The notes under the pieces are model-generated. The model made no database searches, was not told the origin of the DNA, and saw only the letters and a list, made by a program, of their open reading frames with translations. A program made the translations under genes and the position numbers. A DNA stretch of 64,000 nt from Clostridia bacterium (GTDB lineage: Bacteria; Bacillota; Clostridia; UBA1212): positions 86,009-150,008 of the forward strand of contig JAFSVU010000026.1 in assembly GCA_017444825.1 (NCBI GenBank), read 5' to 3'. Below, in pieces: positions 4,425-36,196 of this stretch. Position 1 is the stretch's first letter. Every line of letters starts with the position of its first letter.

Positions 4425-4524
4425 AAAGTCTGCCTCCTGTTTCGTACGGCAACAGGCCGGAAAAGAAAATCTTCCCGGCCTTCAGTCATAAATTTGTTAA
4501 GAAGTCAAATCTCAGAATGGCTTA

Positions 4525-9118: not shown

Positions 9119-9119
9119 A

Positions 9120-13486: not shown

Positions 13487-15010
13487 CTATAATTGTTTAC
13501 CTGATTTTTTAGAATTGTGAGCAACAAGCGCGATCGCTAGTATCATAAGCGGAACAACAAACACCAATATTATCACCGCACAAACCAGTACCTTATGTTC
13601 GCTTGAAAACGCGATAGTCCTGTCAACTCCCTCGGAAAAAGCATATTTATTGACGTACCCGGAGGACGCACCGGGGGAAGAAATTTCCATTGGTTTTGAC
13701 GTGGCTTCTTCAGGGATCAGTACGTCAAGGGCATCAAAGAGTTTATCACCGCCAGAGTAACGCTGGAGTGAATTATCGACGATATCAAGGATATAAAGCT
13801 GTTTCGCGCCGCCGTTTTTGGAACCGTAAACGAGGAACTGAGTATCCTTGCCCCTGTAGGCTCTGATACCTGTTATAAACAGTGTCTCAATGGTCTCTCC
13901 CGCCGGCGTATAAACGAAAGTGGTAGCTTTCTCAAATCTCTTTTCCGGGTATACCCTGGCAAGGTATTTATCTACGTCATAGAACGTAAAAGTGTTGCCT
14001 GCGATATTGTCGTATTCCATAACGAAAAGGTCTCCGTCGCCGTCAAGTCCCGGTGTGGGTGTGGGAGCAGTAGTATCTTCCGGAGCTACCGATGGGGTGA
14101 CCGTCGGAGTTTCAGTCGGCTTTTCAGTTATTTCAGGCGTGATAGCAGGAGATTCGGAAGGATTTTCGGAAGCGTCCGGAGTTTCAGAAGCATCAGGCGT
14201 CGGCGTCGGAGTAGGCGTCGGAGAAGGTGTGGGAGTCGGGGTGGGAGTCACCGGATCCGGTGCTTTTGCCCTTATGACGTTAACAGAATAAACTTTTTCA
14301 TTACCGTTTTCCGCAGTGACCGTAATGGTCCTCACGTTGTTCCCTACCTTAAGGAACTCGGTTCCCGAGAGAGCGCTCTTTGCCGAGCTGTCCTCAAGTC
14401 CGAAATACATGTAGCAGACGTCAACGTTATTGGCGACGTTTACCGTATATGTCAGGGTCTCCTTATTGAATTTGGGATTAAGAGTGCCTACCGAAGGCTC
14501 GATAAATTTCAGATAGCAGTTGGATGATTTTTCTTTGTTTGATATTCCAAGTGTGGCATTGGTTATAGCGACGTCCATTATGTCGTCCTTGCCCTGCTCG
14601 GGAATGAGCCTTAAGGCCATGTGGTCGGTGATGGTAAAGTTACAGGTTCCGACCGCTTTGCTCTTGAACGTGTATTGGCGTGTGAATGATCTTGAATTCT
14701 GACCCTGGGAAAAGTCCACCTGCTCGCTGATGATGCCCGCCGCCTGGGAGACGTTGTCGCCGGAAATGAATGTGACCTTTGAATTATCATATTCAAATTT
14801 GAAGGAAACGTAGGCGGAATCAACGCTGCTCGTATATGTTAGCGTGAGCTTGAATTCGGTGTTTTCCCTTACTTCATTGGTGCTGAGTGTGAGCTTAAGA
14901 CTTGCATCCGAGGCAGCCGAAACGTTGCTCACGAAAAAGCAGCCCGCGATCATAACGACCGCAAGAAAGGCGCAAAATGCGATATGAATTTTAGAATAAG
15001 ATCTCTTCAT
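13487..15010 (-). CDS. Secreted cell-surface protein: signal peptide, cadherin-like beta-sandwich domains, a PT-rich linker, and a C-terminal TM anchor with a basic tail
   Basis: Signal MKRSYSKIHIAFCAFLAVVMIAGCFFVSNVSAAS. Cadherin-like beta-sandwich motif CYLKFIEPSVGTLNPKFNKETLTYTVNV. Linker [21 protein letters not shown]-terminus VLVCAVIILVFVVPLMILAIALVAHNSKKSGKQL. Confidence 0.7.
   Translation of the reverse strand: MKRSYSKIHIAFCAFLAVVMIAGCFFVSNVSAASDASLKLTLSTNEVRENTEFKLTLTYTSSVDSAYVSFKFEYDNSKVTFISGDNVSQAAGIISEQVDFSQGQNSRSFTRQYTFKSKAVGTCNFTITDHMALRLIPEQGKDDIMDVAITNATLGISNKEKSSNCYLKFIEPSVGTLNPKFNKETLTYTVNVANNVDVCYMYFGLEDSSAKSALSGTEFLKVGNNVRTITVTAENGNEKVYSVNVIRAKAPDPVTPTPTPTPSPTPTPTPTPDASETPDASENPSESPAITPEITEKPTETPTVTPSVAPEDTTAPTPTPGLDGDGDLFVMEYDNIAGNTFTFYDVDKYLARVYPEKRFEKATTFVYTPAGETIETLFITGIRAYRGKDTQFLVYGSKNGGAKQLYILDIVDNSLQRYSGGDKLFDALDVLIPEEATSKPMEISSPGASSGYVNKYAFSEGVDRTIAFSSEHKVLVCAVIILVFVVPLMILAIALVAHNSKKSGKQL
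14080..14285. repeat. Proline/threonine-rich linker coding repeat, (CCN-ACN)n, within the surface protein gene
   Basis: DNA shows ggcgtcggagtaggcgtcggagaagg... periodicity, matching the PTPTPTP stretch in the translation. Confidence 0.7.
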
Positions 15011-20147: not shown

Positions 20148-22016
20148 TCAGCAGCCAACACACACACCCCCTTTGTATCTTGCAACACCGCAGCCGGCAC
20201 ATTTGGTCCTGCAATCGGGAGTAGTCTCAGCGCGAAGAGCCTTTTCGAGTTCTCTTTTCATAAAGGCCTCCGTGACGCCAATGTCAATTATGCTCCAGGG
20301 AAGCGGGGCATCCGGATCGGGAGTTAAAGATCCTTCAAAGCCTATGACGCCAATGCGCTCTTTTTCTTCTTTCCACACATCGTAGCTGAAGAACTCGCTC
20401 CAGCTGTCAAAGCCTCCCGTCCTCTTCCAGACGTTATAAATAAGCTCCGAGGCTCTTCTGTCACCTCTCGCAAGATAGTTTTCAACCACCGAAAGTTCAG
20501 GATCATGCCATGAAAAACCGAATTTGGGGCCGAGAGCATCCTTAATGAGTCTTTGGCGTCTTTTTATCTCCTCGTATGAAATCTGCGGGAACCACTGAAA
20601 AGGCGTGTGAGCCTTGGGTACAAATGTGGAAACAGATACAGTGATCGAAGGGCTTTTCACCTTCTCGCCCCGGTGGCACTCGTAATATACGTCTCTCACT
20701 TTTCTCGCAAGTGCGGGGATAGCAAGGAGATCTTCATCCGTCTCGGTGGGAAGTCCCAGCATAAAGTAAAGCTTAACGCTTGAATGTCCGCTGGAAAAAG
20801 CAAGCTTAGATGATCTGATAAGATCTTCCTCGGTGATCCCTTTGTTTATAACATCCCTTAGTCTCTGAGTTCCGGCCTCAAGAGCAAAAGTTAGACCGCT
20901 TTTTCTAACCTTTGATATCTTTTCCATAAGATCAAGGGAGAAGGAATCGATCCTTAGGCTGGGAAGTGAAATATTCATGTTTCTTTTTTCGGTGTAGTCG
21001 ATGAGGCCATCCGTCAGCTCCTTAAGCCCGGAATAGTCGTCGGTAGCAAGGCTTAAAAGTGATATTTCTTCGTAACCGGTGCACTCGGAAAGAGCCACAG
21101 CAGCGTCGATAAGCTTTCCGGGGCTTCTTTCCCTTGCCGGTCTGTAAATGTATCCCGCCTGGCAGAACCTGCAGCCTCTCACACAGCCTCTGAATATTTC
21201 CAGCATTATCCTGTCGTGGATAGCCTCAAGGTAAGGCACCACCTGGGACTTCATAAGATATGTGTTCTCAAAATCCGGAACCACCCTTCTTAAAACCTTT
21301 TCAGGAGCTATCCCTTTAAACTCATCTTTAACGAATATCCCTGCGAATGATCCGTCACTTTCGTACTTAACGTCATAAAAAGACGGCACATAAACGCCCT
21401 CGATCTTAGCGGCCCTTTTCAGAAACTCGATCCTGGGAAGGCCCTCTTTTTTCCATTTTCTGTAGCAGTCAAGGATCTCAGGGAGCATATCTTCACCGTC
21501 GCCTACGTTAAACAGGTCGAAAAAATCGGCAATGGGCTCGGCATTGACGCAGGCAGGTCCGCCGCCAATAACAAAAGGCATGCCATCGGTCCTGTCTTTG
21601 GCGTAAACAGGAAGACCTGCAAGGTCTATCATATTGATGACATTGGTGTATGAGAGCTCGTACTGGAGCGTAAAACCAATGAAATCAAAATCTTTGATCT
21701 CCTCCTGGGATTCGTGGGCAAAAAGCCTGTAGCCCTTCTCTCTCATGATTTTTTCCAGATCCGGCCAGGGCGCAAAGACCCTCTCACACCAGATCCAGTC
21801 TCTTTCGTTGAGAAGACCGTAAAGGAGCTTCATCCCGAGGTGGGACATGCCGATCTCGTAGGAATCGGCAAAGCAAAAAGCAAATCTGACGTCGACCTTA
21901 GACTTGTCTTTAACAACACTGTTTAGCTCGCCGCCTGTATATCTGGAAGGCTTTTCCACCTTCATAAGTATGCTGTCAGGTATGTAAGACAAAAGACTTA
22001 CCTCCAAAATACTCAA
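20148..22016 (-). CDS. B12-binding-domain radical SAM protein (TIGR03960 family)
   Basis: CX3CX2C radical-SAM motif in FRGCVRGCRFCQAGYIY. There is an N-terminal B12-binding-like region, and the protein is 622 aa. Its ATG overlaps the dnaE stop as ATGA. Confidence 0.8.
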   Translation of the reverse strand: MSILEVSLLSYIPDSILMKVEKPSRYTGGELNSVVKDKSKVDVRFAFCFADSYEIGMSHLGMKLLYGLLNERDWIWCERVFAPWPDLEKIMREKGYRLFAHESQEEIKDFDFIGFTLQYELSYTNVINMIDLAGLPVYAKDRTDGMPFVIGGGPACVNAEPIADFFDLFNVGDGEDMLPEILDCYRKWKKEGLPRIEFLKRAAKIEGVYVPSFYDVKYESDGSFAGIFVKDEFKGIAPEKVLRRVVPDFENTYLMKSQVVPYLEAIHDRIMLEIFRGCVRGCRFCQAGYIYRPARERSPGKLIDAAVALSECTGYEEISLLSLATDDYSGLKELTDGLIDYTEKRNMNISLPSLRIDSFSLDLMEKISKVRKSGLTFALEAGTQRLRDVINKGITEEDLIRSSKLAFSSGHSSVKLYFMLGLPTETDEDLLAIPALARKVRDVYYECHRGEKVKSPSITVSVSTFVPKAHTPFQWFPQISYEEIKRRQRLIKDALGPKFGFSWHDPELSVVENYLARGDRRASELIYNVWKRTGGFDSWSEFFSYDVWKEEKERIGVIGFEGSLTPDPDAPLPWSIIDIGVTEAFMKRELEKALRAETTPDCRTKCAGCGVARYKGGVCVGC

Positions 22017-25000
22017 AATGAATAGTTTTTGATCTCATTTTCCACCAATGCAGATCCGGAGCATCGACCCTTGTAGAGGACCACCTCAGGGGCATATGCG
22101 TCCCGAAGTTCCACCTCTCTTGGCCCGTCAAAGAATCTCAGGAAAGAGATAGCTGCATTAAGCCTCTTCGGATCCACCATTACCGACAATGGCTCACGGG
22201 CCTCACCGCCATCATACCTTTCTCCACCTGATCCTCCTTGTGCGCTATATGCAGGTCTTCCGCTTCCCGGGCTGTAGGAGTCAGGAGCAAAAAGAGCCTC
22301 CGCTATAACCGAAGCCGCCTCCTCATCTCTGAGGCTTATCCTTCCCGCCACGACGGCGAATTTGTCGATCTCGGCAAGGCCTCTTGACTGCTCATAGGTC
22401 TTCGGGAAAAGGATCACCTCAAAGCTGCCGGTAAGATCCTCAAGGGATACAAAGGCCATGGTCTGTCCGTTCTTGGTTATTTTTTTCTTGACGCCGGTAA
22501 CCACGCCAAACATGACCACGTTCTGATTGTCCTTCACCGAATCCGAGTCATCACGAATTTCACCATCGTTTTTATCGTCACCGGATTGCTTCAGCATGGA
22601 TGCGGTGCAGTTTACGAATTTTCTTATGAACTCGGTGTACTGCTGAAGGGGATGCCCGCTGATATAGACACCCGAGACCTCTTTCTCAAATCCCAGAAGC
22701 TCGTTCTTCGGAAGCTCGGGAAGATCCGGGTAGTTATCGTAATCATCGGCGCCGCTGTCCTCCATGAGATCGAAAAATGAGAACTGCCCCTCGGAAACGT
22801 TTTTGGAGGCGGTATTCACTGCGTCCAGCACGACCTCGTAGGATTTTAACAGTATGTTCCTGTTAAGGCCCAGCGAATCGAAAGCTCCGGCTTTGATGAA
22901 TGAATCCACAGCCCGCTTATTGATGTCCATCGACTTCATCCTTTTGGCAAAATCGTAAAAGTTTCTGTAGCGGCCGTTTTCATTACGTTCGTTCACCAGT
23001 GACAGCACCGCATTCTCACCAACGTTCTTAAGAGCCGCAAGGCCGAATCTGATCTTGTCGCCCACCACAGTGAAATAGGTGTAGCTCTCATTGATGTCGG
23101 GGGGAAGCATCTCAATGCCCATTTCCTTGCAGTCGGCGATGTACTCTGACACCTCGTCGCTTTTGGTTATAAGGCTGTTAAGAGTTGCGCACATAAACTC
23201 CACGGGATAGTAGAGCTTGAGATAAGCGGTCTCGTAAGCGACCACGGCGTAACAGGCGGCATGGGCCTTGTTGAATGCATAGCTCGCGAAATCGATCATC
23301 TTGTCGAATATCTTATTGGTTATTTCAGGGGAGATGCCCTTCTTTTCAGCGCCCTCGACAAACAGCGACCGCTCCTTCTGCATCACGTCATGCTTTTTCT
23401 TTGCCATGGCCCTTCTCACCAGGTCTGAGTGACCCATTGTGTAGCCGGCGACGTCGCGAACGATCTGCATGACCTGTTCCTGATAGACTATGCAGCCGTA
23501 AGTGACCTTGAGTATAGGCTCAAGAAGAGGATGATCATATTTTATGTTTTCGGGATGCTTTCTGTTTTCAATGTACGTCGGTATCTGGTCCATGGGACCC
23601 GGTCTGTAAAGAGCGATGCCCGCTATGATCTCCTCAAGGCTTGTAGGCGAGAGGTTCATCATGAAATTGGTCATTCCTCCGCTCTCAAGCTGGAATATGC
23701 CCGCGGTCTTACCGTCTGAGATCTGCTTGTAAACGGCCGGATCGTCCATCTCCATGTTGTCGAAATCCACGGTGACGCCCCGGTTCTCCTTGACAAGTTC
23801 AAGAGCGTCCTGAATGACTGTAAGAGTCCTGAGACCGAGAAAATCTACTTTTAGAAGTCCCAGCGCCTCAAGCTTTGTCATAGGGTACATGGTTATGGCG
23901 GAGTCATTGGAAAGCTGCACCGGAACGTATGTGGTGACGGGGTCCCTGGTGAGGACAACGCCCGCAGCGTGAGTTGATATGTTTTTGGGCATGCCCTCGA
24001 TGCGCATGGCCTTGTCAATAAGATCCTTTGTGACCTTGTCGGAATCGTATTTGGCCTTAAGTTCAGGGCTTTTTTTCAATGAATCCGCAATGGTGATATT
24101 GAGTTCCTTTGGAATAAGCTTTGCCACCGCGTCAACGTCCGCATAAGGTATGTCGAGAACTCTTCCTACGTCACGGATAGCACCGCGAGCCGCCATGGTA
24201 CCGAATGTGATTATCTGGGCCACGCATTCCTTGCCGTATTTTGCCACCACGTAGTCTATAACTTCCTTCCGCCTGGTATCGGAAAAATCAACGTCGAAGT
24301 CAGGCATGCTGATACGCTCGGGATTCAGGAATCTTTCGAATGCGAGGTTGTACTTTAAAGCGTTGATATTGGTTATTTTGAGGCAGTATGCCACAAGGCT
24401 TGCAGCACCGGAGCCTCTTCCGGGGCCAACAGTGATGCCGTGGTCCTTGGCGTATTTAATGAAATCCCAGACGATGAGATAGTAGTCGGGGTACTTCATC
24501 CTGATAATGACCGAAAGCTCGTATTCGAGCCTGTCTTTTATCTCGTCCGAGAGATCATCGCCAAAGCGGTACTTTGCACCCTCGTAGGTAAGCTTTCTTA
24601 AGTAATCCGCGCTGGTCATGCCATCCGGAACCTCGAAATTCGGAAGTATGGACTGTACGCCAAGCTCGAACTTTAGGTTGCACATTTCGGCTATTTTTTC
24701 TGTATTTTCAATAGCTTCTGGGACGCTCTCAAAAAGCTTTGTCATCTCTTCCGGAGACTTTAAGTAGAACTGATCCGATTCGAATTTCAGACGGTCCTCA
24801 TCGGCCAGCTTTTTACCGGTCTGGATGCACAGGAGTATATCCTGGATAACGGCGTCCTCACGGTTTACGAAATGGACGTCATTGGTGGCGACAAGGGGTA
24901 TGCCTGTCTCCCTGGAGATGTTTATGAGTTCACGGTTCACCTCGATCTGCTCTAATATTCCGTTGCTCTGAAGCTCGAGATAATAATTTCCTCTTCCGAA

Positions 25001-25498
25001 AAGATCGTCGAACCAAAGAGCCGTTTTTTTAGCGGCTTCAAGGTCGTGCTCCATTATAAGCCTCGGGATCTCACCCGCAAGGCAGGCGGAACAGCATACA
25101 AGACCTTCATGGTACTGTGAGAGGATCTCCTTATCGATCCTTGGCTTGTAGTAGAACCCGTCAATGAAGGCGAGAGAAACAAGCTTGATTAGGTTCTTAT
25201 AGCCCGTCATGTCCTTGGCAAGAAGTATCAGGTGATAGTTTGCACTTTCACCGGAGCCCCTGGCGGTCCTGTCGAATCTGGAGCCGGGTGCGCAGTATAC
25301 CTCACAGCCGATGATGGGCTTGATGCCCCTGTCCAGACATTTCTGGTAGAAGTCGATGGCGGCATACATCACACCGTGGTCCGTGATGGCAAGAGAATCC
25401 ATCCCCAGCTCTTTGCACCTGTCGATAAGCTGGTCGAGCCTTGACGCTCCGTCAAGAAGACTGTATTCAGTATGTACGTGAAGATGTGTAAAGCTCAT
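22013..25498 (-). CDS. dnaE: DNA polymerase III alpha subunit DnaE
   Basis: PHP N-terminus MSFTHLHVHTEYSLLDGASRLDQLIDRCKELGMDSLAITDHGVMYAAIDFYQ, a polymerase core, and a C-terminal OB fold. 1161 aa. Confidence 0.95.
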   Translation of the reverse strand: MSFTHLHVHTEYSLLDGASRLDQLIDRCKELGMDSLAITDHGVMYAAIDFYQKCLDRGIKPIIGCEVYCAPGSRFDRTARGSGESANYHLILLAKDMTGYKNLIKLVSLAFIDGFYYKPRIDKEILSQYHEGLVCCSACLAGEIPRLIMEHDLEAAKKTALWFDDLFGRGNYYLELQSNGILEQIEVNRELINISRETGIPLVATNDVHFVNREDAVIQDILLCIQTGKKLADEDRLKFESDQFYLKSPEEMTKLFESVPEAIENTEKIAEMCNLKFELGVQSILPNFEVPDGMTSADYLRKLTYEGAKYRFGDDLSDEIKDRLEYELSVIIRMKYPDYYLIVWDFIKYAKDHGITVGPGRGSGAASLVAYCLKITNINALKYNLAFERFLNPERISMPDFDVDFSDTRRKEVIDYVVAKYGKECVAQIITFGTMAARGAIRDVGRVLDIPYADVDAVAKLIPKELNITIADSLKKSPELKAKYDSDKVTKDLIDKAMRIEGMPKNISTHAAGVVLTRDPVTTYVPVQLSNDSAITMYPMTKLEALGLLKVDFLGLRTLTVIQDALELVKENRGVTVDFDNMEMDDPAVYKQISDGKTAGIFQLESGGMTNFMMNLSPTSLEEIIAGIALYRPGPMDQIPTYIENRKHPENIKYDHPLLEPILKVTYGCIVYQEQVMQIVRDVAGYTMGHSDLVRRAMAKKKHDVMQKERSLFVEGAEKKGISPEITNKIFDKMIDFASYAFNKAHAACYAVVAYETAYLKLYYPVEFMCATLNSLITKSDEVSEYIADCKEMGIEMLPPDINESYTYFTVVGDKIRFGLAALKNVGENAVLSLVNERNENGRYRNFYDFAKRMKSMDINKRAVDSFIKAGAFDSLGLNRNILLKSYEVVLDAVNTASKNVSEGQFSFFDLMEDSGADDYDNYPDLPELPKNELLGFEKEVSGVYISGHPLQQYTEFIRKFVNCTASMLKQSGDDKNDGEIRDDSDSVKDNQNVVMFGVVTGVKKKITKNGQTMAFVSLEDLTGSFEVILFPKTYEQSRGLAEIDKFAVVAGRISLRDEEAASVIAEALFAPDSYSPGSGRPAYSAQGGSGGERYDGGEAREPLSVMVDPKRLNAAISFLRFFDGPREVELRDAYAPEVVLYKGRCSGSALVENEIKNYSF

Positions 25499-25531: not shown

Positions 25532-27286
25532 TCAGCCAATGATCGAAGCGACCTTTGCTTTAAGAAGTTTTTTAAGCTCTTCAGCCTTTTCGACGCAGGC
25601 CTTTTCGGATTCAAAGCTGCTGATGCCGACGTATATCTTGACCTTGGGCTCAGTACCGGAAGGTCTCACCGCAAACCATCCGTCGTCAAGGTAGAACTTG
25701 AGCACGTCGGATCTCGGAAGGTCTATCTTTGAGCTGCCTGCATTGGCGCCGTTCTTATCATAAAAAGTCTTTATACCGGTTTTGATATCGTCGATGGCGT
25801 TGATCCGCCCTTCCAGTACGGCAGGGCCCGCGTCTCTTAAACCGTTCATAAGTTTAACGATATTTTCGTGACCGGATTCACCGGGAAGCTCAATGGATAA
25901 AGCGGATTCGGACCTGAAGCCGTAAGTCTTATGAATGGCGTCAAGGGCGTCCTTAAGGCTTCTCTTTAAGACCACCTTGTTGTAAAGAGCCATCTCGCAA
26001 AGCACCACTCCCGCAGCGACCCCGTCTTTGTCCCGAGCATAACCTTCCGTGAGGAATCCGTAGCTTTCCTCAAAGCCGAGTATGAAGCTGTCCTTATTTG
26101 CCTCATTGATAAGATCGCCAATGAACTTGAACCCGGTGAGAACGGTCTTGAATTCAACGCCGTTTGCCTCCGCGATCCTGCCCGCAAGGTCTGTTGAGAC
26201 GATGGTCGAGACAGCGAACGCGTCCTTCGGCAGACAACCGTTTCTCTTCCTCACGCCAATGATATAGTCCATAAACAGGCATCCTATCTCGTTTCCGGTG
26301 AGACTTCTGTAGCTTCCGTCGCCAAGCCTTACAGCCGCGCCCATCCTGTCGGAGTCCGGGTCTGTACCGAATACTATATCCGCCTTGAGTTTTTTGGCAA
26401 GCTTGATCCCTTTCTCAAGGGCAGCGGGATTTTCGGGGTTTGGCACCGTAAGACCGGGGAAATTACCGTCGGCTCTCGACTGGGACCTGACCATATGGAA
26501 GTTCTTAAAGCCCAGCTTTTTGATCGCCCTACCCATATATTTTGCACCTGCGCCAAACAGTGGAGTGTAGACGATGCAGATCTCACCTGAGTGATCTCTG
26601 ATAAGATCGTTGTCGGCTTTCAGTGCCGTCACCCTGTTTGTAAATTTTTCGATCTGGTCATCCTCAAAAAAGCTGAGAAATCCTCTTCTGATTTCTTTTG
26701 AGAATGAAGGATCGGGTATTTTTGAAAAGTCGAAAAAGCTGTCGATTATTTTCGTTATCTCATCCGCCATTGCAGGGGCGATCTGAACACCGCCCTCCCA
26801 GTAGACCTTGTATCCGTTATACTGCTTTGGATTGTGGCTTGCGGTTATCATGATGCCTGCCTGGAAATCACCCTCCCAGACTGTATATGAAAGAACAGGC
26901 ACCGGAGCCGGAGCCCTGAATATTTTTGTCTTGATGCCGTTTGAAGCAAATACGGCGGCGGCTTCTTTGGCGAAGACCTCAGAATTAAGCCTCGTATCAT
27001 ATGAAACCGCTATACCACGGGACATGGCTTTATCGCCGAATGATTTGATATACTGAGAGATGGCATAGCTTACACGTCTAACGACGTAAATGTTCATACG
27101 GTTGGTGCCGGCGCCCATGACCCCGCGAAGGCCTGCGGTTCCAAACTCCAGATCTCTGTAAAATCTGTCATAGATCTCATCCTTGTCCTTGATGTTCTTA
27201 AGCTCAAGCCTTGTTTCCTCATCAAAGTATCCGTCTGATATCCACTCATTGAAACGTTTCTCCACAAGTTTCTGCTTATTGTCCAA
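25532..27286 (-). CDS. pgcA: Phospho-sugar mutase (alpha-phosphoglucomutase PgcA-like)
   Basis: GTAGLRGVMGAGTNRMN, active-site TASHNPKQYNGYKV, and the metal loop FGTDPDSDRMG. 584 aa. Confidence 0.8.
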   Translation of the reverse strand: MDNKQKLVEKRFNEWISDGYFDEETRLELKNIKDKDEIYDRFYRDLEFGTAGLRGVMGAGTNRMNIYVVRRVSYAISQYIKSFGDKAMSRGIAVSYDTRLNSEVFAKEAAAVFASNGIKTKIFRAPAPVPVLSYTVWEGDFQAGIMITASHNPKQYNGYKVYWEGGVQIAPAMADEITKIIDSFFDFSKIPDPSFSKEIRRGFLSFFEDDQIEKFTNRVTALKADNDLIRDHSGEICIVYTPLFGAGAKYMGRAIKKLGFKNFHMVRSQSRADGNFPGLTVPNPENPAALEKGIKLAKKLKADIVFGTDPDSDRMGAAVRLGDGSYRSLTGNEIGCLFMDYIIGVRKRNGCLPKDAFAVSTIVSTDLAGRIAEANGVEFKTVLTGFKFIGDLINEANKDSFILGFEESYGFLTEGYARDKDGVAAGVVLCEMALYNKVVLKRSLKDALDAIHKTYGFRSESALSIELPGESGHENIVKLMNGLRDAGPAVLEGRINAIDDIKTGIKTFYDKNGANAGSSKIDLPRSDVLKFYLDDGWFAVRPSGTEPKVKIYVGISSFESEKACVEKAEELKKLLKAKVASIIG

Positions 27287-27287
27287 C

Positions 27288-28682
27288 TTATATGCCCTCC
27301 CTGTATAATTGTAATGCCTTATCGATTAAAACGTCTTTTTCGTTTTCGATATCAAATTCAGAAGCCATGACCGCAAGCCTTGAAAGGATCCTCCCCATTG
27401 TTTCACCCTTCGGAATTCCGGCGGCTTTTAGGTCCCTGCCTGAGACCGCGAGGGAGGAAGGTCCGGTCACAGCTTTACCGGATATAACTATATCTTCTAT
27501 CTCATCTTTAAGCTTATGAAGCGATGACTCCAGCAGAGCTATATAGTCCCCTTTTTTTCCGTGAACGTCGGCGCTCATGACCTCAGGTAGCATTGAAGCG
27601 TGTTCTGTTCCCGCAAGCCTTATAAGTTTGCCGGCGGCCTTTCTGTAGTATCCTGAAGTAACCAACGGATCCCTGAAAAACTCATGGTATCTCACAAGAT
27701 CCGTCACGTCCGCAATAAATCTTTTAGGATAGCGAAGGCGGTTTAAAACAGTCTCCGCAATACAGGCGCTGATATCCGCATGCCCCGTAAAATGAGTATT
27801 CCCTTTACTGTCAAATCTCAGGCAGTCCGGCTTTCCTATATCATGCAGAAGAAGAGTCATCCGAAGCAGAAGATCCGATCTCGTTGAAAGCATTGCCGCA
27901 ACCGTGTGAGTATAGACGTCGTAGCAGTGAAACTGATTTATCTGAGGCACGTCCACACATTTCTTAAGTTCCGGTATGATCTCAAATATCACATCTCTCG
28001 TGTCGCCGAGAAATATATCTCTCATCCGGTCGATGTTTTCCGAAACAAGAAGCTTTGAAAGCTCGGCATTAATGCGCTCGGCAGAAACAAATCGAAGGTC
28101 TCCGCATCTTTGAATCGCAGCGGCTTTAGTGTCAGGATCTATATCAAAACCAAGCTTTGCCGAAAACCTGAGAGCACGCATGATCCTAAGAGCATCTTCT
28201 TTGAACCTTTGCTCAGGATCTCCCACGCACCTTATGATCTTCTTATCAATATCGCCAATGCCGCCTGTAACGTCAATAAGCCCCTTGGAAGGAGAATATG
28301 CCAGCGCATTTACGGTAAAATCACGCCTCAAAAGGTCCCTGGAAAGGTCATCCGTGAAAGTGACTTTATCCGGTCTTCTGTGGTCGAGGTAATCCCCGTC
28401 CAGCCTGAACGTGGTTATCTCGATCTGGTGACCGTCGATCAGGACTGTCACCGTCCCGTGGGCAATGCCCGTAGGTATTGTCTTAAAACCCTCAAAGACC
28501 TTAATAGTCTCTTCCACCCTGGCGGAAGTGGTAATATCAAAATCAAAGGGCAAAGCGCCGATAAGAATGTCTCTTACAGCGCCGCCAACCACATATGCCT
28601 CATATCCCCTCGACTCAAGAAGGTCGATCGCGAGGAGCACATGTTCCGGTATTTGATTTATGATATCACCCGGTATACGCAT
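27288..28682 (-). CDS. cca: CCA tRNA nucleotidyltransferase (Pol-beta NTase head plus HD domain)
   Basis: GYEAYVVGGAVRDILIG...DFDITT and RRDFTVNALAY (class II NTase), then an HD domain (LLLHDIGKP). Confidence 0.85.
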   Translation of the reverse strand: MRIPGDIINQIPEHVLLAIDLLESRGYEAYVVGGAVRDILIGALPFDFDITTSARVEETIKVFEGFKTIPTGIAHGTVTVLIDGHQIEITTFRLDGDYLDHRRPDKVTFTDDLSRDLLRRDFTVNALAYSPSKGLIDVTGGIGDIDKKIIRCVGDPEQRFKEDALRIMRALRFSAKLGFDIDPDTKAAAIQRCGDLRFVSAERINAELSKLLVSENIDRMRDIFLGDTRDVIFEIIPELKKCVDVPQINQFHCYDVYTHTVAAMLSTRSDLLLRMTLLLHDIGKPDCLRFDSKGNTHFTGHADISACIAETVLNRLRYPKRFIADVTDLVRYHEFFRDPLVTSGYYRKAAGKLIRLAGTEHASMLPEVMSADVHGKKGDYIALLESSLHKLKDEIEDIVISGKAVTGPSSLAVSGRDLKAAGIPKGETMGRILSRLAVMASEFDIENEKDVLIDKALQLYREGI

Positions 28683-28712: not shown

Positions 28713-29993
28713 TCAAATATTCGCAAGAGCCTGATCAATGTCAGCAATAATATCCTCGGGATCTTCGATGCCCACGGAAAAGCGGATAAGGTCCGGAGTG
28801 ACACCGCAGTCCTTAAGCTGCTCGTCGGTAAGCTGTCTGTGAGTGGTGCTTGCGGGGTGGAGAAGCGAAGTTCTGGCATCCGCCACATGGGTCACTACAG
28901 CGGCAAGTTTAACCGAATCCATAAATTTAGTGGCTGCTTCTCGACCGCCCTTTATACCGAAGGATATAACGCCTGAAGAGCCGTTTGGCAGGTACTTTTT
29001 GCAAAGAGCGTTGTTGGGATTGTCCGGAAGATCAGGATAGTTTATCCAGGAAATCTTCGCATCGGGCCCCTGCATTCTTGTCACCAGGTAGTCAGCCACC
29101 TTTTTTGCATTTTCGCAGTGTCTTTTCATTCTTAGCGCCAATGTCTCCATGCCGAGGTTGAGAAGGAAGGCGTTCATCGGCGCAGGCGCGGAGCCGAGGT
29201 CTCTCATAAGATGTGCTCTTGCTTTTACAATGAAAGCTGCCTTTCCGAAAGTCTCGGTGTAAGTGACGCCGTGATATGACTCGTCAGGCTCGGTGAGCAT
29301 GGGGTAATTACCTTTGGTCCAATCAAAATTTCCGGAGTCAATGATGGCGCCGCCGAGAGCCACAGCATGTCCGTCCAGATATTTTGAAGTGGAATGGACG
29401 ACGATATCCGCGCCGAACTCAATCGGTCTGCAGTTTATGGGCGTGGGGAACGTATTGTCCACAATGAGAGGAACGTTGTGGCTGTGGGCCGCCTTGGCGA
29501 ATTCTTCGATATCAAGAATATCGAGGGACGGATTGGAAAGCGTCTCGCCGAAGACCAGTTTTGTATTCTTTCTGAAATACTGCTCGATCTCGGAAGCCTT
29601 TGAAGTGCAGGGAATGAAAGTGGTTTCAATACCCATCTCTTTCAAAGTCTTGAAGAACAGATTATAAGTTCCGCCGTAAATGGATGAGGAGGAAATAATG
29701 TGATCTCCCGCGGAAGCGATATTGAGTATTGATATCAGAGAAGCCGCCTGACCGGATGACGTCAGCATGCATCCTACTCCGCCCTCAAGAGCCGCAAGCT
29801 TTTTCTCAGGTGCGTCAGCTGTGGGGTTTGCAAGCCTGGTATAAAAGAAGCCGTCTTTTTTAAGGTCGAAAAGGTCGCCCATTTCGGCCGAGGAATCGTA
29901 TTTAAAAGTGGTGCTCTGATAAATAGGAAGCACACGCGGTTCACCGTTCTTCGGGGAATAACCCTCTTGTACACAAATAGTATCTCTTTTCAT
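28713..29993 (-). CDS. metY: O-acetylhomoserine sulfhydrylase (PLP-dependent; MetY)
   Basis: MKRDTICVQEGYSPKNGEPRVLPIYQSTTFKYDSSAEMGDLFD..., with the PLP lysine block VVHSTSKYLDGH. 426 aa. Confidence 0.85.
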   Translation of the reverse strand: MKRDTICVQEGYSPKNGEPRVLPIYQSTTFKYDSSAEMGDLFDLKKDGFFYTRLANPTADAPEKKLAALEGGVGCMLTSSGQAASLISILNIASAGDHIISSSSIYGGTYNLFFKTLKEMGIETTFIPCTSKASEIEQYFRKNTKLVFGETLSNPSLDILDIEEFAKAAHSHNVPLIVDNTFPTPINCRPIEFGADIVVHSTSKYLDGHAVALGGAIIDSGNFDWTKGNYPMLTEPDESYHGVTYTETFGKAAFIVKARAHLMRDLGSAPAPMNAFLLNLGMETLALRMKRHCENAKKVADYLVTRMQGPDAKISWINYPDLPDNPNNALCKKYLPNGSSGVISFGIKGGREAATKFMDSVKLAAVVTHVADARTSLLHPASTTHRQLTDEQLKDCGVTPDLIRFSVGIEDPEDIIADIDQALANI

Positions 29994-32900
29994 TAGTCAT
30001 CATCTCCGTTTGATATTTTACATATAGATCTCACGCGGCAATTGCTGCAGTCCGGTTTCTCCGGAGCACAGTAATGGCCGTTGATCATTCTTGAAATTTT
30101 AGATTTTACACCTAAGCTCACTTTCGATTCAACTCCGCCTTCATCCTTTATGATTCCGGGGTTATCGGAAAGCGACAGTTCCGAAAACGAATGCTTTTGG
30201 CCTGTTGATTCCGGTTCCAGCTGGTCTCCGTAGCAGTAGTACCGGATCTTATCGACTTCGATCTTATCGTCTTGCACAAAACGGTCTTTCAGTGCACTTC
30301 TGACGGCATCCTTGGCCTCTTTGCTTTCAAGAGCAAGAGCATAGATGGGAAGCTGAAGCTTTTCTCCGTTTTCAATATTTGTCGTTTTTATAAAGTAGGA
30401 CTTATAGTCGGTTACAGTGAGTATCACCTTCTCGCCAATGATCTTGGCATCGACCCTGTCAATACTGCCGTTTATCAGTACGTCTATATCTTCCGCCCTG
30501 AATTTAACGCTTGGTATCCTGTATTTGTCACCGAACCGGAGCTCAAAGCTGATAGGGAAGCCGGTCTGGGTTTTTCCGGATATTTCCTTCATATTTTTAA
30601 GTTCAAGAGCAACGGCGTCCTTTGTGAGCAGCGCCATTTCACTGTTTCTCGAGGAATTCTCGATGTATCTCAGCGCATTGGCGTTGTATTCACTGCTTCT
30701 GAATTCGTTGTCCGCCTGCTCCACGTATTCTCGCCAGACAGGTACCTTGTCAAGGTCGCTTTCCGGTCTCTTTAAAGAGTTGATATCCGCATAAGCCTTA
30801 CGTATAGAACCCTCAAGAAGCGCATGGACGTAGGTTCCCATGGTATTTGAATTCAGCTCACCGGTATCACGGGATCTCAGCCCGAGGCAGGTCTCATAGA
30901 AAAACCTGACGTCACATTTGTCAATGGCGTCGAGAGTCGTGGCACCAATGGAAAACTCATCCCCTATATTCATCGCCCTCTTCACGTTTTCGGAATCAAC
31001 TTCCGCACGTCCCCTGATGATGTCTATATTTTTCACCGTCTCCGAGTGTGAAGGAGCGTATATCGTTTCTTTAAGCCCTCCGAAAAGTGACTTAACGGTA
31101 CCCACCGCAGTGGCAGGGATGCATTCGTCCCCGTCACCGCTTGACATTGAGTAGCTGAGGTACAGCAGCTTTCTTGCGCAGGTCAGTATCCTGTAGACAT
31201 TAAACTGGGAAAGAAGGACCCTGTCTACAGAATTATATGCGGTCTTTCCGTTGGCCGATGAGATGGCGTCCCTCTCGTTATCCCCGAGAAAGCTTGAATC
31301 CGGAAGATCACCCGGGAAAGAGCCCATATTCGCGCCAAGGACCATCATAACTTTCTTGTCCATATAACCGGATCTTTCGATATCCCCGATCTGTACAAAA
31401 GCACCCGAGAAGGGTATGGAAGCCGCCTTGATAGAAGCTGCCGCGGACATGAGCACGTCGTCTGTAAGCAATGCGATCCTGTTCTTTCCGCCCTTCACAT
31501 TGCCAAGTACCTCAGAGCATTCGTTCATTATATCGATGAATGCGCTTCTGACTCTAATATAGTCTCTGTCGTCCCTGTTGCCGCTTTCATTCCAAAGAGC
31601 CCCATGGTCATCGGAAGAGGAAACGTTTTTCAGGATAAAATCCGATACCATGTCAAGGACGTCGTTAACCGTACAATAATTACCGTTCCTGTGACGGTAT
31701 CCGTTTTCCTTGTCACTAAACAACCGCAGCAGATCTTCGGCCATCTTTATATATGGCGGATAATCGAACGGGACATCCGCGCCCGGGTTCAAACGTTTTT
31801 TGCTTTTCTCTATAAACCTTTCAAAGGCATCAAAGGTCTGAGCCCTGACACATCCGTACTTTAAAAGCTCATTGTCAAGTACGTCAATATCATCCCTCGA
31901 AAAGTCGCCGTGCCGAATAAGCCCCGTCTTCAGGAGTATCCTGATATTATCTATCACACGCTCTCCGGCAAGAATTTTAAGGAAAGAATCCACAAGCCTT
32001 ATGATCCTGTGGCCGGAATATTCAAGATGAGCATCGATAAAGCATGGAATACCATGGTCTTTAAAAATGGCATTAAAGATATGGTAGTTATCCTTCACGG
32101 AAGGCATTGCAACGGCAATATCGGAGTAAGTATAATCGCCGCCTGCCACAAGTTCATTTATTCTCTTTGCGCATGCTTCGATCTCATGGTAAAAATCAAC
32201 TGCCGAGACTATCTCGACGGAATCCGAAGTAAAGGAATTCCTGCTTCTCAATGGATACGCATATTCCCGGCTAAGTCTATAAAGATCCGCCGAATCAGAA
32301 AACCTGGTGTTCCGATGATCTTTACAGTCAATGGGCCGGGTTTTGCATCCCGGAAACATCTTTACAAGATTCAAATAAGTTCTGTTCGGGATCGAAAAAA
32401 CCGGATTATCCGAATCCTTAAAAACGTAAAACGTGACGGACCTTGCGCGGCCTGCCATCGCGGATAGAAGGATCATTTCCTCGTCTGTAAACCCGCTGAA
32501 ACCGTCAAAGAAAAGGTCCGAGTTTTCAACGCAGCTTGTTCCCTCGCCAATCTGTTTAGCCGCAAGAGGGATGAGTTTTGAAAGCTCGGAATAATCCTTT
32601 GAGGCTTCCTCATATTTCTCAAGGATGATCGATAACTCACTGAGCCTTTGAGGCGTCAGCAGGTCGTCGGGATTTGCTTCACCGTATTTCCGGGCTGCTT
32701 CTTTAAGTATTTCAGTCGTGACGCAGTATTTTTCCAGCTCCGAAACAGTATTTGAAAGCCTTGCGACAGCCGAGGGTCTTTCCGAAACCGATTCAAACAC
32801 AGTCAAACTATCAAGCTCATTAAGTACTTTCAAAAGGATCATTGACCTCATGGTACCGGTCATGGGCCGTTTTATTTTTACATCGCTTTCCGAAAGGATC

Positions 32901-33151
32901 CTGTGTACCAGACGGCCGAAGCTGATGACCTCGCTGCCGATAAGGCCATTGCGGCCATGAGAGCCCTCCTCAGATACAGTCTCAAAAAACTTTTTCTCAG
33001 TCTCGACAGTCATCTGCTCAGGAACTATGAGGAAGGAATTCCTCTCAGGAAACAGAGGATCGCCGCCAAGAGATGCCTTATAAAAATCTCTCACGGCCTT
33101 GTATGTTTTCCCGCTCCCCGCGGGTCCGTATACGATCCTGATGTCAGCCAT
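29993..33151 (-). CDS. addB: AddB/RexB-like ATP-dependent helicase/nuclease subunit B (inactivated helicase plus PD-(D/E)XK nuclease with a C-terminal Fe-S Cys cluster). No addA follows it
   Basis: N-terminal Walker A IVYGPAGSGKTY. C-terminal cysteine cluster HYCAPEKPDCSNCRVRSICK, typical of the AddB nuclease domain. The stop overlaps the metY ATG (TAATG). Confidence 0.7.
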   Translation of the reverse strand: MADIRIVYGPAGSGKTYKAVRDFYKASLGGDPLFPERNSFLIVPEQMTVETEKKFFETVSEEGSHGRNGLIGSEVISFGRLVHRILSESDVKIKRPMTGTMRSMILLKVLNELDSLTVFESVSERPSAVARLSNTVSELEKYCVTTEILKEAARKYGEANPDDLLTPQRLSELSIILEKYEEASKDYSELSKLIPLAAKQIGEGTSCVENSDLFFDGFSGFTDEEMILLSAMAGRARSVTFYVFKDSDNPVFSIPNRTYLNLVKMFPGCKTRPIDCKDHRNTRFSDSADLYRLSREYAYPLRSRNSFTSDSVEIVSAVDFYHEIEACAKRINELVAGGDYTYSDIAVAMPSVKDNYHIFNAIFKDHGIPCFIDAHLEYSGHRIIRLVDSFLKILAGERVIDNIRILLKTGLIRHGDFSRDDIDVLDNELLKYGCVRAQTFDAFERFIEKSKKRLNPGADVPFDYPPYIKMAEDLLRLFSDKENGYRHRNGNYCTVNDVLDMVSDFILKNVSSSDDHGALWNESGNRDDRDYIRVRSAFIDIMNECSEVLGNVKGGKNRIALLTDDVLMSAAASIKAASIPFSGAFVQIGDIERSGYMDKKVMMVLGANMGSFPGDLPDSSFLGDNERDAISSANGKTAYNSVDRVLLSQFNVYRILTCARKLLYLSYSMSSGDGDECIPATAVGTVKSLFGGLKETIYAPSHSETVKNIDIIRGRAEVDSENVKRAMNIGDEFSIGATTLDAIDKCDVRFFYETCLGLRSRDTGELNSNTMGTYVHALLEGSIRKAYADINSLKRPESDLDKVPVWREYVEQADNEFRSSEYNANALRYIENSSRNSEMALLTKDAVALELKNMKEISGKTQTGFPISFELRFGDKYRIPSVKFRAEDIDVLINGSIDRVDAKIIGEKVILTVTDYKSYFIKTTNIENGEKLQLPIYALALESKEAKDAVRSALKDRFVQDDKIEVDKIRYYCYGDQLEPESTGQKHSFSELSLSDNPGIIKDEGGVESKVSLGVKSKISRMINGHYCAPEKPDCSNCRVRSICKISNGDDD

Positions 33152-33201: not shown

Positions 33202-34185
33202 TCACTGAAATTCATCGGATATGTTAAACAGTGGACTGCGGTACAGTCTCGCGTCATCAAAAGCCCTCTGCCGTTCCGTCATACTGCCCTCATCCACACC
33301 GGAAAGAGCATCCTCCATTTCATAAAGCTTCGCGTCAATGTCATCCATCTCGTGAAGTATGAACGCCTCCGGAAACTTTGGCGTAACTGAGCTGCCGAAT
33401 TCGGGAACACCGTGATGTGACAATATCATGTGGGTAAGAAGCCTTACAGCTTCCGGATCGATCTCAAGTCTCTTGCCAAAATCCTCGACGATCATCGCGC
33501 CCCTTACGATATGTGTCACCAGATTTCCGTCCACAGACACCTGTTTGATAAGTCCGCTGTCACCAAGTTCATATTCATGGATCTTTCCGATATCATGAAG
33601 AGCTGCGCCGCAAAGAAGCAGGTCCTTATTAAGGAACTTGTAAGCCTGCCATATATAAAAGCACCCTTTTATGACGCCAAGGGTATGGTGCAGAAGCCCG
33701 CCTATCTCAGCATGGTGGAAAGAAATGGCCGCAGGGTATCTGATAAGGTCCTCCTTGTAAGCTTCATATATCGCCAATGTGATCTTTTTAAGATCCGGGT
33801 TTTCGACAAGCTTTTCAATAGTGCCGGTGACCTCCGCATACATCGTAAGGCCGTCCTTGGGGCTTGATTTTACCAGATCCCTCACTGTAACGTCATCGGA
33901 AGGACCTGCTTTTCTTAGGCGCCCAACGTTAAGCATGAGCTTATCGCTGTAAGTTTCAACGACCGCTTCAACAAAAACGATATCGCCCACGAAAAAACCT
34001 TCAAAATCGCCCTTCCCGGGATTCCAGAAGTTTCCTGTGATCTTTCCCGATTTATCCTTGAAAGAGAAAAACAGATAGGGATCGCCGGATTTACGGGTCT
34101 TTGCGGTCACGTTGTCGATGATAAAATAGCATCTGATATGTTCGCCGGACTGAAATTCAGAAATTTTTTGTTGTTCCATTAGCAC
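33202..34185 (-). CDS. yhaM: 3'-5' exoribonuclease YhaM (OB-fold plus HD domain)
   Basis: N-terminal OB fold (GEHIRCYFIIDNVTAKTRKSGDPYLFFSFKDKSGKI) and an HD domain (HHTLGV...LCGAALHDIGKIHE...LSHHG). Confidence 0.8.
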   Translation of the reverse strand: MLMEQQKISEFQSGEHIRCYFIIDNVTAKTRKSGDPYLFFSFKDKSGKITGNFWNPGKGDFEGFFVGDIVFVEAVVETYSDKLMLNVGRLRKAGPSDDVTVRDLVKSSPKDGLTMYAEVTGTIEKLVENPDLKKITLAIYEAYKEDLIRYPAAISFHHAEIGGLLHHTLGVIKGCFYIWQAYKFLNKDLLLCGAALHDIGKIHEYELGDSGLIKQVSVDGNLVTHIVRGAMIVEDFGKRLEIDPEAVRLLTHMILSHHGVPEFGSSVTPKFPEAFILHEMDDIDAKLYEMEDALSGVDEGSMTERQRAFDDARLYRSPLFNISDEFQ

Positions 34186-34297: not shown

Positions 34298-36196
34298 TCA
34301 CCACTTATAATCGGTGTCTTTCCAGTTGAGCTCCTCGGGAGCCTCCACCACGTGCACTACCATTGTGACTACCGTATTGTCGGGACCGATGGTTGCGGTG
34401 ATGGTGGCGTCGCCAATGCCCTTGGCGGCTATCATGCCGTCCTTGCTCACAACTGCGATATTCGTATCGCTGGAAGTATACGTAACAGGGTATTTCTCCG
34501 CGGGAACCATAGCAGGATAGTCCTTATGGGACTCGGTCTTATCGTTATAGCACTCGCCCCAGGTGTCATTGCTGAATTTCACAAGAGCTCTTATCTGGAA
34601 CTTGTGAGTAGCACCGTTGGTCTTACCCTTGTATATCGTAAGCTTCGGTTCCACAGCCTCGGCCGAAACGATCTTCGGGCTGCTGTCACTGTAATTGAAG
34701 TCGGCGGCATAGACGTAGACCTTAAACACTATCTGGAAGCCTTCATACGTGGCCTTGACGGTGGTCTTGCCCTCTTTCAGCGCAGTGATCTTGATACCGT
34801 CAAACTTAATGAGAGACGTGTCGTAATCACTGAACGTGATATTGGCAATGTCGTCGTCCTTGATCTCGTGGCGGCTGATATTGGCGTCTATCCAGTATAC
34901 TCTGAAAGATTCATTAACGTCGCCGATGTGCATCTTAACAAGATGGTCGATGGTCGTGATACCTTCCGGGACGGGATCAGTTTCAGCCGGCCAGAAGCCG
35001 TCCGTAATTAGCACGTTTTTGTCGCTCTTGGGCGTTGAGTGGACCTTCTCGTCCTGGTACGTGGTTATGGTTACGAAATTGAATCTGGTAGCCCATTTTC
35101 CCCAGTTATCGTCACGCCCATCGCAGAAAGCGTAACCAAGCATCAACGTATCCTTGAGCTGGATGTGGCCGTTGGTCCTCTTCGAAATACCCATGTTGTG
35201 GCAGAACTGGGCAATGTTCTTCTTTATAAGCTCACCTTTGATGAAATGGATGCCGTCCTTGGACTCCCAGATCTGTACGCCGCTCTGTGCGGAGAACCTG
35301 TTCATGGTCTGAACTCCCATGAAAAGTCCCGCATCTTCCACGTATACAACGTCAAGCTGATCTCCGCCGGAGCTGGTAAAAGCTCTGCCGTGAAACTTCA
35401 TGGTGGCCGGCCAGTTGGGATCTGTGGCGTCCGCGGTCGCAACGTATTTGTAATCACCCGTGTCGCATGCCCAGGTGTAATAAATATAAAGCGTACCGTC
35501 AAGAACCACGAAGCTGGGCTCGCCTGCGCCCCACTTGTCGTCGGACTCATTGTAATAAACTATCGGCATGGGATCTCCGCCCCAGCCGCTGCCGTTCCAT
35601 TTGTCAAAAGGACCGTCGGGCTTTCTGGATCTGGCAACAAAAACGTTGTTATTGATACCTCCGTTGGTGGAAACTATGGTGGAAGTGTAACCGATGTAAT
35701 AATATCCGCCAAAGTAGATAACGCCGGGGTCACAGACCGAATAATGGTCGTATGAATCGGGTGTGGGCTGGAGAACGAGTTTCTCTTTGGACCAGGTCTT
35801 TCCTCCGTCGTCGGAATGCTTGTATGTGAACCAGTCCCACTCACCGGAAGTTCCGGGTGTGGCAAACCATGCATCCATGGTTCCGTCGGGATAATACATT
35901 ATGCTGGGTCCGTATCTGTAGCCCCATTTTCCTTCAACAGGGGCAAATACGTTAAAGCCCGTGCCTTCCGCATCAATGTGGAAGTGGGTGTTCTCAGCCG
36001 GTGTCACTCTCGGAAGTTCATCCTGAAACTCCCTGGGATCGGGTCCCTCGGGTGTAGGCTCTTCTGTGGGCTGTTCTGTAGGATTATTATTCATAGGATC
36101 GCCTCCCTTATCAGTGTTGCAGGCGGCAAAGCATCCGGCCGCCAGAACCAATATCAGAACCAACGATATCAGTCTCAATATATTACGCATTTTCAA
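34298..36196 (-). CDS. Lipoprotein with a beta-propeller glycoside-hydrolase-like domain (GH43/GH32/BNR fold) and C-terminal Ig-like (Big_2) domains
   Basis: Lipobox LVLAAGCFAAC. W/Y/G/D-rich propeller-like repeats (WDWFTYKHSDDGGKTW; GAGEPSFVVLDGTLYIYYTW). C-terminal beta-sandwich segments TALKEGKTTVKAT and KGIGDATITATIG. Confidence 0.55.
   Translation of the reverse strand: MKMRNILRLISLVLILVLAAGCFAACNTDKGGDPMNNNPTEQPTEEPTPEGPDPREFQDELPRVTPAENTHFHIDAEGTGFNVFAPVEGKWGYRYGPSIMYYPDGTMDAWFATPGTSGEWDWFTYKHSDDGGKTWSKEKLVLQPTPDSYDHYSVCDPGVIYFGGYYYIGYTSTIVSTNGGINNNVFVARSRKPDGPFDKWNGSGWGGDPMPIVYYNESDDKWGAGEPSFVVLDGTLYIYYTWACDTGDYKYVATADATDPNWPATMKFHGRAFTSSGGDQLDVVYVEDAGLFMGVQTMNRFSAQSGVQIWESKDGIHFIKGELIKKNIAQFCHNMGISKRTNGHIQLKDTLMLGYAFCDGRDDNWGKWATRFNFVTITTYQDEKVHSTPKSDKNVLITDGFWPAETDPVPEGITTIDHLVKMHIGDVNESFRVYWIDANISRHEIKDDDIANITFSDYDTSLIKFDGIKITALKEGKTTVKATYEGFQIVFKVYVYAADFNYSDSSPKIVSAEAVEPKLTIYKGKTNGATHKFQIRALVKFSNDTWGECYNDKTESHKDYPAMVPAEKYPVTYTSSDTNIAVVSKDGMIAAKGIGDATITATIGPDNTVVTMVVHVVEAPEELNWKDTDYKW

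Follow-up and report, generated by a model that had tools for sequence, protein, structure and literature searches.

The 64,000-nucleotide stretch of the Clostridia bacterium contig JAFSVU010000026.1 analysed here (the window) carries an addB-like gene (29993..33151) that has yhaM upstream and metY downstream and is not followed by addA. We characterised the gene product, the order of the genes around it in relatives, and the candidates for its missing partner. All coordinates given for the window refer to features on the minus strand.

An addB-like gene between yhaM and metY

The 1052-aa gene product is identical to NCBI MBQ7445304.1, named 'MAG: PD-(D/E)XK nuclease family protein [Clostridia bacterium]' (MAG, metagenome-assembled genome) by the Prokaryotic Genome Annotation Pipeline (PGAP). 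Its N-terminal ADDB_N domain, an inactive superfamily 1 (SF1) helicase-like domain, spans residues 7-293 (32273..33133; Pfam E 9e-43) and includes the Walker A motif GPAGSGKT at residues 9-16 (33104..33127). The PD-(D/E)XK (RecB-family) nuclease domain, PDDEXK_1, occupies residues 737-1045 (30017..30943; Pfam E 4e-23), with the nuclease-domain motifs D898-R899-D901 (30449..30460) and D915-Y916-K917 (30401..30409). The first conserved Fe-S cysteine, Cys746 (30914..30916), aligns with the CPF motif of the family consensus, and the other three form C1035-x2-C1038-x5-C1044 (30020..30049).

Downstream, the addB stop codon and the metY start codon overlap by 1 nt as TAATG (29991..29995; TAA 29993-29995, metY ATG 29991-29993), just as the original prediction from the sequence had described, and the metY ATG is preceded, 10 nt upstream, by a GGAG. 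The metY gene (28713..29993) encodes a 426-aa O-acetylhomoserine sulfhydrylase (TIGR01326, 577 bits). Some gene callers choose an alternative start 60 nt downstream (406 aa); an N-terminus conserved in the relatives and a Pfam match starting as early as residue 4 show that the 426-aa start is the correct one. The same-strand string continues with cca (CCA-adding enzyme, 27288..28682) and, 1 nt past the cca stop, pgcA (phosphoglucomutase, 25532..27286), and dnaE (DNA polymerase III alpha, 22013..25498) closes the conserved part; a radical S-adenosylmethionine (SAM) gene lies beyond it on the same strand. On the other side, a 50-nt gap separates addB from yhaM (33202..34179), which encodes a 3'-5' exonuclease of single-stranded DNA (ssDNA) and RNA with an OB (oligonucleotide/oligosaccharide-binding) fold and an HD domain; this full-length YhaM homologue is indeed the upstream neighbour that had been predicted. 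The original prediction had also placed pcrA some 20 kb away, and a canonical 831-aa PcrA (6665..9160; UvrD-helicase, UvrD_C and a weak, sub-cutoff PcrA/UvrD tudor match) is encoded 20.8 kb from addB, as the sole UvrD-type/SF1 helicase in the window.

Conserved residues and predicted fold of the AddB-like protein

For the motif analysis, the window protein was aligned with 34 homologues (35 AddB sequences), 30 of which were only 20-25% identical. As a result, G12, G14 and K15 of the Walker A motif were invariant in all 35 sequences, as were H776, E870, D898, R899, D901, D915, Y916, K917, Q933 and Y937 in the nuclease domain and the cysteines C746, C1035, C1038 and C1044. These columns correspond to the RecB-family nuclease motifs and to four cysteines that are predicted to hold an Fe-S cluster. 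The cluster had been assigned to the C-terminal string CAPEKPDCSNCRVRSIC, which is present. This assignment stands for C1035, C1038 and C1044, the only conserved cysteines of the string, and fails for its first, C1027, which varies even among close relatives; the fourth ligand position would instead be C746.

The Walker A motif, described in the original prediction as degenerate, turned out to be intact, and it is the other helicase motifs that have decayed: motif II is D216-G, without the catalytic Glu, matching the AddB family consensus. The helicase-like domain is thus predicted to be capable of binding ATP and incapable of acting as a motor. With D-G in place of D-E, as in every AddB, ATP hydrolysis should be impossible, and a separate motor subunit would therefore be needed.

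The best PDB sequence match was B. subtilis AddB (3u44_B, 5e-39), and the AddB family profile aligned with this chain end to end (1155 bits). An AlphaFold2 model built from the 35-sequence alignment had a mean predicted local distance difference test (pLDDT) score of 84.6. When the model was compared with the PDB by Foldseek, the top five matches were all AddB chains of B. subtilis AddAB, with template-modelling (TM) scores for the query (TMq) of 0.71-0.72 and E values down to 2.5e-46, followed by weaker matches to RecC (TM 0.53, E 6e-20) and AdnA (TM 0.50). The AddB hallmarks that were claimed for the protein are therefore borne out by the ADDB_N and PDDEXK_1 domains, the invariant catalytic residues and the AddB-like predicted fold. 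B. subtilis AddB (PDB 3U44, 3U4Q and 4CEH-4CEJ, chain B), the best match of the window AddB in both sequence and fold, has the same helicase-like N-terminus with Walker A only, the same RecB-family nuclease and the same four Fe-S cysteines. Compared with it, the window AddB is ~17% identical in the structural alignment and ~110 aa shorter, with most of the difference falling in the C-terminal third, and its gene, unlike that of B. subtilis, is not followed by addA.

We also scored the protein against the equivalog model of RexB, the lactococcal/streptococcal type of this subunit, which is not known to carry the Fe-S cysteines. The threshold of the model (TIGR02774) was not reached (94.8 bits against a cut-off of 718), and all four cysteines are present in the window protein.

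A rumen and gut lineage carrying yhaM-addB

The exact window protein was found on contigs of several metagenome assemblies in ENA and Logan. A word-indexed protein search returned only five clusters at 44-99% identity, followed by a drop to ~24%; this gap was filled by an exhaustive HMMER search of 1.84 billion representatives, which yielded relatives at 37% (P0371), 31-33% (P0372-P0377) and 28% (P0378) identity. The window PcrA showed the same pattern in the relatives, with identity tiers of 68-72%, 57-60% and 42-47%, which points to a lineage of moderate depth whose AddB evolves fast, and not to an isolated oddity. The AddBs of the yhaM-addB lineage formed one clade in a neighbour-joining tree. 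The relatives that we examined are all Oscillospirales-like MAGs from the rumen or gut, and yak rumen is the source of at least one of the GTDB MAGs. The source names given to relatives are 'uncultured Ruminococcus sp.', 'Clostridia bacterium', 'Ruminococcaceae bacterium' and 'Oscillospiraceae bacterium'. The annotations of the subfamily are inconsistent, as seen for MBQ7445304.1 (window), MBP1588026.1 (P0371) and MBE7064220.1 (P0378); the names in use are 'PD-(D/E)XK nuclease family protein', 'exodeoxyribonuclease V subunit gamma' (P0371) and 'hypothetical protein'.

The gene order PRK - Big_2 - yhaM - addB - metY - cca - pgcA - dnaE is kept in P0002 and P0004, in the 99%-identical strain and in the 37%-identical P0371 (GCA_017848335.1). 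Among GTDB MAGs, RUG12790 and RGIG10266 have the same string through metY, where their short contigs end, and SRR10912533_bin.33, which has it too, is represented by the P0004 contig. The order seen in the window was found on independent contigs from at least eight different samples and in three GTDB MAGs. The addB/metY junction of this inner clade is always tight and varies in geometry (TAATG, ATGA twice, an 11-nt overlap and a 2-nt gap). Further out, in P0372 (32%), yhaM overlaps addB and the contig stops 208 bp after addB, within which a 42-aa fragment corresponds to the MetY N-terminus. The most distant relative for which the gene context was retrieved, P0378 (28%), has the order mutS2 ... 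era - recO - GH25 - yhaM - addB on a 316-kb contig of GCA_015069195.1, and addB is followed there by two convergently oriented genes, for an esterase and an M18 peptidase.

Thus, all of the relatives that we examined, the most divergent having an AddB only 28% identical, showed yhaM-addB without a downstream addA. The addB-metY coupling was observed in the closer relatives only and is absent from P0378, and the metY-cca-pgcA-dnaE continuation was likewise observed only in the closer relatives, at identities of 32% or more. The linkage conserved throughout the lineage is therefore yhaM-addB and not addB-metY. The coupling to metY, singled out originally as unusual, does exist in the window and is limited in this way. 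We accordingly rejected a functional coupling of addB and metY, given its absence from the more distant P0378. The methionine-biosynthesis link looks like operon hitch-hiking rather than function, because it is confined to the closer relatives and other genes follow addB in P0378. The overlap itself is best read as compact packing in a long housekeeping gene string. All open reading frames (ORFs) of at least 250 aa from 1.9 to 43 kb of the window lie on the minus strand, and the plus strand has a GC skew that is negative for the most part.

Separation of addB from addA is rare

To place this arrangement among other AddB loci, we considered two distant relatives from the match list, in which addA starts at, or 2 nt past, the addB stop, and a metagenome scan with an alignment of canonical AddBs. 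The scan yielded 80 loci, 68 of which extend 1.5 kb or more past the end of addB. In 65 of these 68 canonical-type loci addA lies directly downstream of addB, in one it lies 750 bp away, and in two, L077 and L062, it is not downstream. The gene next to addB in L077 encodes an AP-endonuclease/AMP-binding fusion, while in L062 a RecT-family gene (3640..4272, minus), on the strand opposite to addB, is directly downstream and is followed by SurE. The split in L077 appears to be an independent event, because L077 falls elsewhere in the neighbour-joining tree.

These numbers agree with the published survey, in which addA and addB were colocalised in all 13 proteobacteria and in 20 of 21 Firmicutes, Clostridium tetani being the one that departed from this, and in which AddA and AddB closely co-occurred in genomes (Rocha, Cornet and Michel 2005, PMC1193525). 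The initial statement that addB in Firmicutes is nearly always followed by addA thus holds, both for our loci (66/68 adjacent or within 750 bp) and for the survey (20/21; PMC1193525). Separation of the two genes is rare (~3-5% of loci), has a published precedent and gives no evidence of a new enzyme; a downstream addA is a typical rather than a strictly defining trait of AddB. The idea that relatives might routinely part addB from addA, raised in the original prediction as a point that would count against it, was borne out only in part: the genes are apart in every relative of the lineage, in ~3% of unrelated loci and in C. tetani. Like the window lineage, C. tetani is a Firmicute with non-adjacent addA and addB (PMC1193525). 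There, however, the separation concerns a single species of a 2005 survey and both genes are known, whereas in the window lineage it is clade-wide and tied to yhaM-addB, and addA was not found in the window, its 10-kb flanks or the retrieved loci of the relatives.

A comparable case may be Helicobacter pylori, which has a functional AddAB with addA (HP1553) and addB (HP0275) at distant sites on the chromosome. The H. pylori AddB is of the proteobacterial type, unlike that of the window.

The yhaM neighbour

The window YhaM matched B. subtilis YhaM (PDB 9h3f) over residues 9-318 with E 1.7e-45, retaining the HH, HD, HHG and D metal motifs. Its HD domain scored above the Pfam cut-off, the OB fold (tRNA_anti-codon) reached 26.5 bits against a 27-bit cut-off, and the NCBIfam equivalog score was below the cut-off (214.7 against 460). 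Set against the structurally characterised B. subtilis YhaM (9H3F) and S. aureus Cbf1 (9O7T), the window protein is collinear over its full length with 9h3f and its HD motif is intact.

A YhaM-like gene also occurs near some of the canonical-type AddB loci, though in only 6 of the 80. In L069-L075, one canonical species group, it lies ~1.4 kb downstream of addA (~16.7-17.7 kb in L069), and in L077 it is found at 3533..4507, 3.5 kb upstream of the orphan addB and beside an Exo_endo_phos-family (xthA-like) nuclease gene. This hints that a link between YhaM and end resection recurs in unrelated Clostridia. The yhaM-addB linkage suggests a loose DNA-end-processing neighbourhood; it is no evidence that YhaM replaces AddA. 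We know of no described link between YhaM and AddB, and the operon partners of yhaM in B. subtilis are yhaN and yhaO, which are sbcC/D-like, rather than addB. YhaM itself has been reported as a LexA-regulated hexameric ssDNA 3'-deoxyribonuclease that is needed for transformation, and its authors proposed a partner, not yet named, that regulates its processing of ssDNA (PMC12107432).

The partner of the window AddB

As the original prediction had stated, there is no addA beside addB: metY follows with the 1-nt overlap, and we found no AddA in the 64-kb window or in the 10 kb past either end. The prediction had left a choice between an addA encoded elsewhere and a stand-alone AddB working with another helicase. 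The first is favoured, though not proven, by the invariant residues, the fold, the purifying selection described below and the dead helicase-like domain. We thus consider it likely that the protein is a normal AddAB subunit B, that its addA resides at a locus unlinked to it, and that addB has stood beside yhaM in this lineage for a long time.

The mechanism that we propose is that the window gene encodes subunit B of a helicase-nuclease of the AddAB type, the enzyme whose resection of double-strand DNA ends prepares them for the loading of RecA. Its motor partner would most likely be a canonical AddA, the gene for which would lie elsewhere in the genome, unlinked to addB. Unwinding of the DNA and cleavage of the 3' strand would fall to AddA, and cleavage of the 5' strand and scanning for Chi to AddB. 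In this rumen and gut Clostridia lineage, addB would have parted from addA long ago and been inherited since then as a yhaM-addB pair; in the inner clade, the pair sits in the same-strand housekeeping string yhaM-addB-metY-cca-pgcA-dnaE.

Several observations weigh against this interpretation. In addition to its absence from the window and the 10-kb flanks, AddA was not found in any retrieved locus of the lineage relatives. When a profile built from the AddAs of two canonical loci was used as the bait, at least 8000 matches were returned, all with E<=1e-10, and the 120 matches listed were all AddAs ~50% identical to the bait, which made a copy from the lineage indistinguishable. This shows AddA to be much better conserved than AddB. 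The NCBIfam AddB equivalog TIGR02773 was not reached (314.7 bits against a cut-off of 903.7), and the window AddB sits on a long branch, with a mean identity of 21.8% to other AddBs against 29% among those. Nor did the locus offer regulatory support: the Rfam scan of the window returned only one tRNA over threshold and neither a SAM riboswitch nor a T-box before metY, the LexA box GAACN4GTTC was absent from the entire window, and promoter- and terminator-like sites between 21.5 and 41.4 kb were not above the shuffled expectation, none of them being convincingly intergenic.

The shortfall against TIGR02773 reflects sequence divergence and not an absent feature, and the curated AddB model does not reach this rumen subfamily. 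The Bacteroides fragilis AddB (BF2191) is instructive here: it is functional, with four cysteines and the nuclease motif, although it is only 16% identical to B. subtilis AddB and 209 aa shorter (PMC2887965). Like the window AddB it is short and highly divergent and, unlike it, it adjoins addA. Divergence and small size alone are therefore no argument against AddB function.

The PcrA of the window, as the SF1 helicase at hand, was considered as a candidate for the role of AddA and was ruled out, being without a nuclease domain.

The alternative that survives best, which we nevertheless regard as unlikely, is that the lineage lost AddA and kept an orphan AddB, driven by another motor (PcrA or another SF1/SF2 helicase), with YhaM degrading the 3' strand. 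It would account for yhaM-addB being the only clade-wide conserved linkage, with short gaps or overlaps, and for the absence of AddA from ~84 kb around the gene and from every relative's locus; the long branch, the length of the protein, ~100 aa less than a typical AddB, and the partner of YhaM that has been proposed without being named (PMC12107432) would fit as well. However, the fold and all of the invariant residues are those of a canonical AddB, and the sequence gives no hint of a new interface. The occurrence of yhaM near complete addB-addA operons (L069-L075) means, furthermore, that the yhaM linkage does not imply addA loss, and ~84 kb is too small a part of a multi-megabase genome for absence from it to count for much. 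In its fullest form, in which AddA was lost in an Oscillospirales sub-lineage and YhaM (as 3'-ssDNA exonuclease) and AddB (as 5'-strand nuclease and Chi scanner) make up a new end-resection module with a non-AddA helicase such as PcrA, we find the idea quite unlikely.

We then asked whether the gene could be a decaying, non-functional AddB relic left after loss of the AddAB pathway, as the scores under the curated family cut-offs and the inconsistent PGAP names of the subfamily might suggest. For this purpose, the window strain was compared with the 99%-identical strain; five contigs of the same sequence had shown zero nucleotide differences. With 27 synonymous and 13 non-synonymous changes, the ratio of non-synonymous to synonymous substitution rates (dN/dS) of addB was 0.13, in the same comparison as values of 0.07 for metY and 0.04 for yhaM, confirming that addB is under purifying selection. 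Together with this ratio and the confident structure model, the intact full-length ORFs in all relatives, without any frameshift or loss of a catalytic residue seen, and the invariance of the catalytic and Fe-S residues across sequences only 28-50% identical make a relic highly improbable.

It is likewise very improbable that the protein is a RecC-like (RecBCD gamma) or AdnA/AdnB-like subunit instead of an AddB, as could be supposed from the PGAP name 'exodeoxyribonuclease V subunit gamma' of the 37%-identical P0371 and from the weaker structural matches to RecC and AdnA. RecC has no active nuclease motif and no Fe-S cluster, whereas the nuclease motifs and four cysteines are conserved here, and the Foldseek TM score is 0.72 to AddB against 0.53 to RecC. 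The mycobacterial AdnA and AdnB have full helicase motifs in both subunits, unlike the D-G of motif II here, and no adjacent recB or recD was seen in the relatives. RecC and AdnA/AdnB are thus distant structural relatives in the equivalent second-subunit role, and neither description fits the window AddB. On the strength of the alignment and the model, we assign the protein as a divergent, predicted-functional AddB, neither a relic nor a RecC.

Finally, that the missing addA is an assembly or binning artefact, with a contig chimeric at the addB/metY junction, has virtually no likelihood: all of the sequences do come from metagenome assemblies or MAGs, but the identical junction recurs in independent assemblies of different samples by different assemblers (MEGAHIT-style k141, 'scaffold'-named ENA and Logan contigs), and five species at 44-51% identity have the junction, each with its own overlap geometry, so that the gene order and the varied geometry in the relatives rule it out.

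Other features of the window and its relatives

In the window, cca and pgcA (25532..28682) are separate genes: the TAA stop is followed after 1 nt by a TTG start, which has GGAGGG in front of it. The cca stop is absent from the 46-49%-identical relatives, in which one 1050-aa CCA-adding-enzyme/phosphoglucomutase ORF is called (L005 7702..10854, L006 14437..17589, L007 5885..9037), within which a GGAGG and a GTG start remain; this ORF may represent a real fusion protein or read-through. At the pcrA position of L014 (5228..7760; ERZ28654444 scaffold_2885, same species), three ORFs of 381, 250 and 229 aa replace the 831-aa pcrA, and the UvrD_C and tudor matches are found only in the last of them. 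This may be a disrupted pcrA, the result of an insertion, or an error of the assembly.

Two further large ORFs of the window, both lying among housekeeping genes, had no Pfam match, an 840-aa ORF between groEL and valS (1902..4424), which is identical on contigs from several samples, and a 507-aa ORF beside mutL (13487..15010). A 787-aa protein (15038..17401) has SH3, cadherin-like and dockerin type I domains, the dockerin suggesting a cellulosome-type fibre degrader. The 632-aa protein encoded at 34298..36196, in the conserved string upstream of yhaM, has a Big_2 domain and a weak GH130-like match. About 6-10 kb beyond position 1 (the left end) of the window, L013 (18388..22523) carries genes for a 682-aa protein without a Pfam domain, an Mbeg1-like/phospholipase-like protein and a phage-type integrase, and may include the edge of a mobile element.

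Implications

The window gene encodes a new, divergent AddB, and thus adds a member to a known family; its gene order is rare and has been reported before. The finding would be mechanistically important only if AddA proved to be absent from these genomes. The conserved yhaM-addB neighbourhood lends weak genomic-context support to a DNA-end-processing role of YhaM. If addA is located elsewhere, as we consider likely, the lineage would provide a lineage-level case of an obligate two-subunit enzyme with stably unlinked genes. Furthermore, the curated AddB model of NCBI misses this whole rumen subfamily, and AddAB may therefore be wrongly scored as absent from these MAGs.

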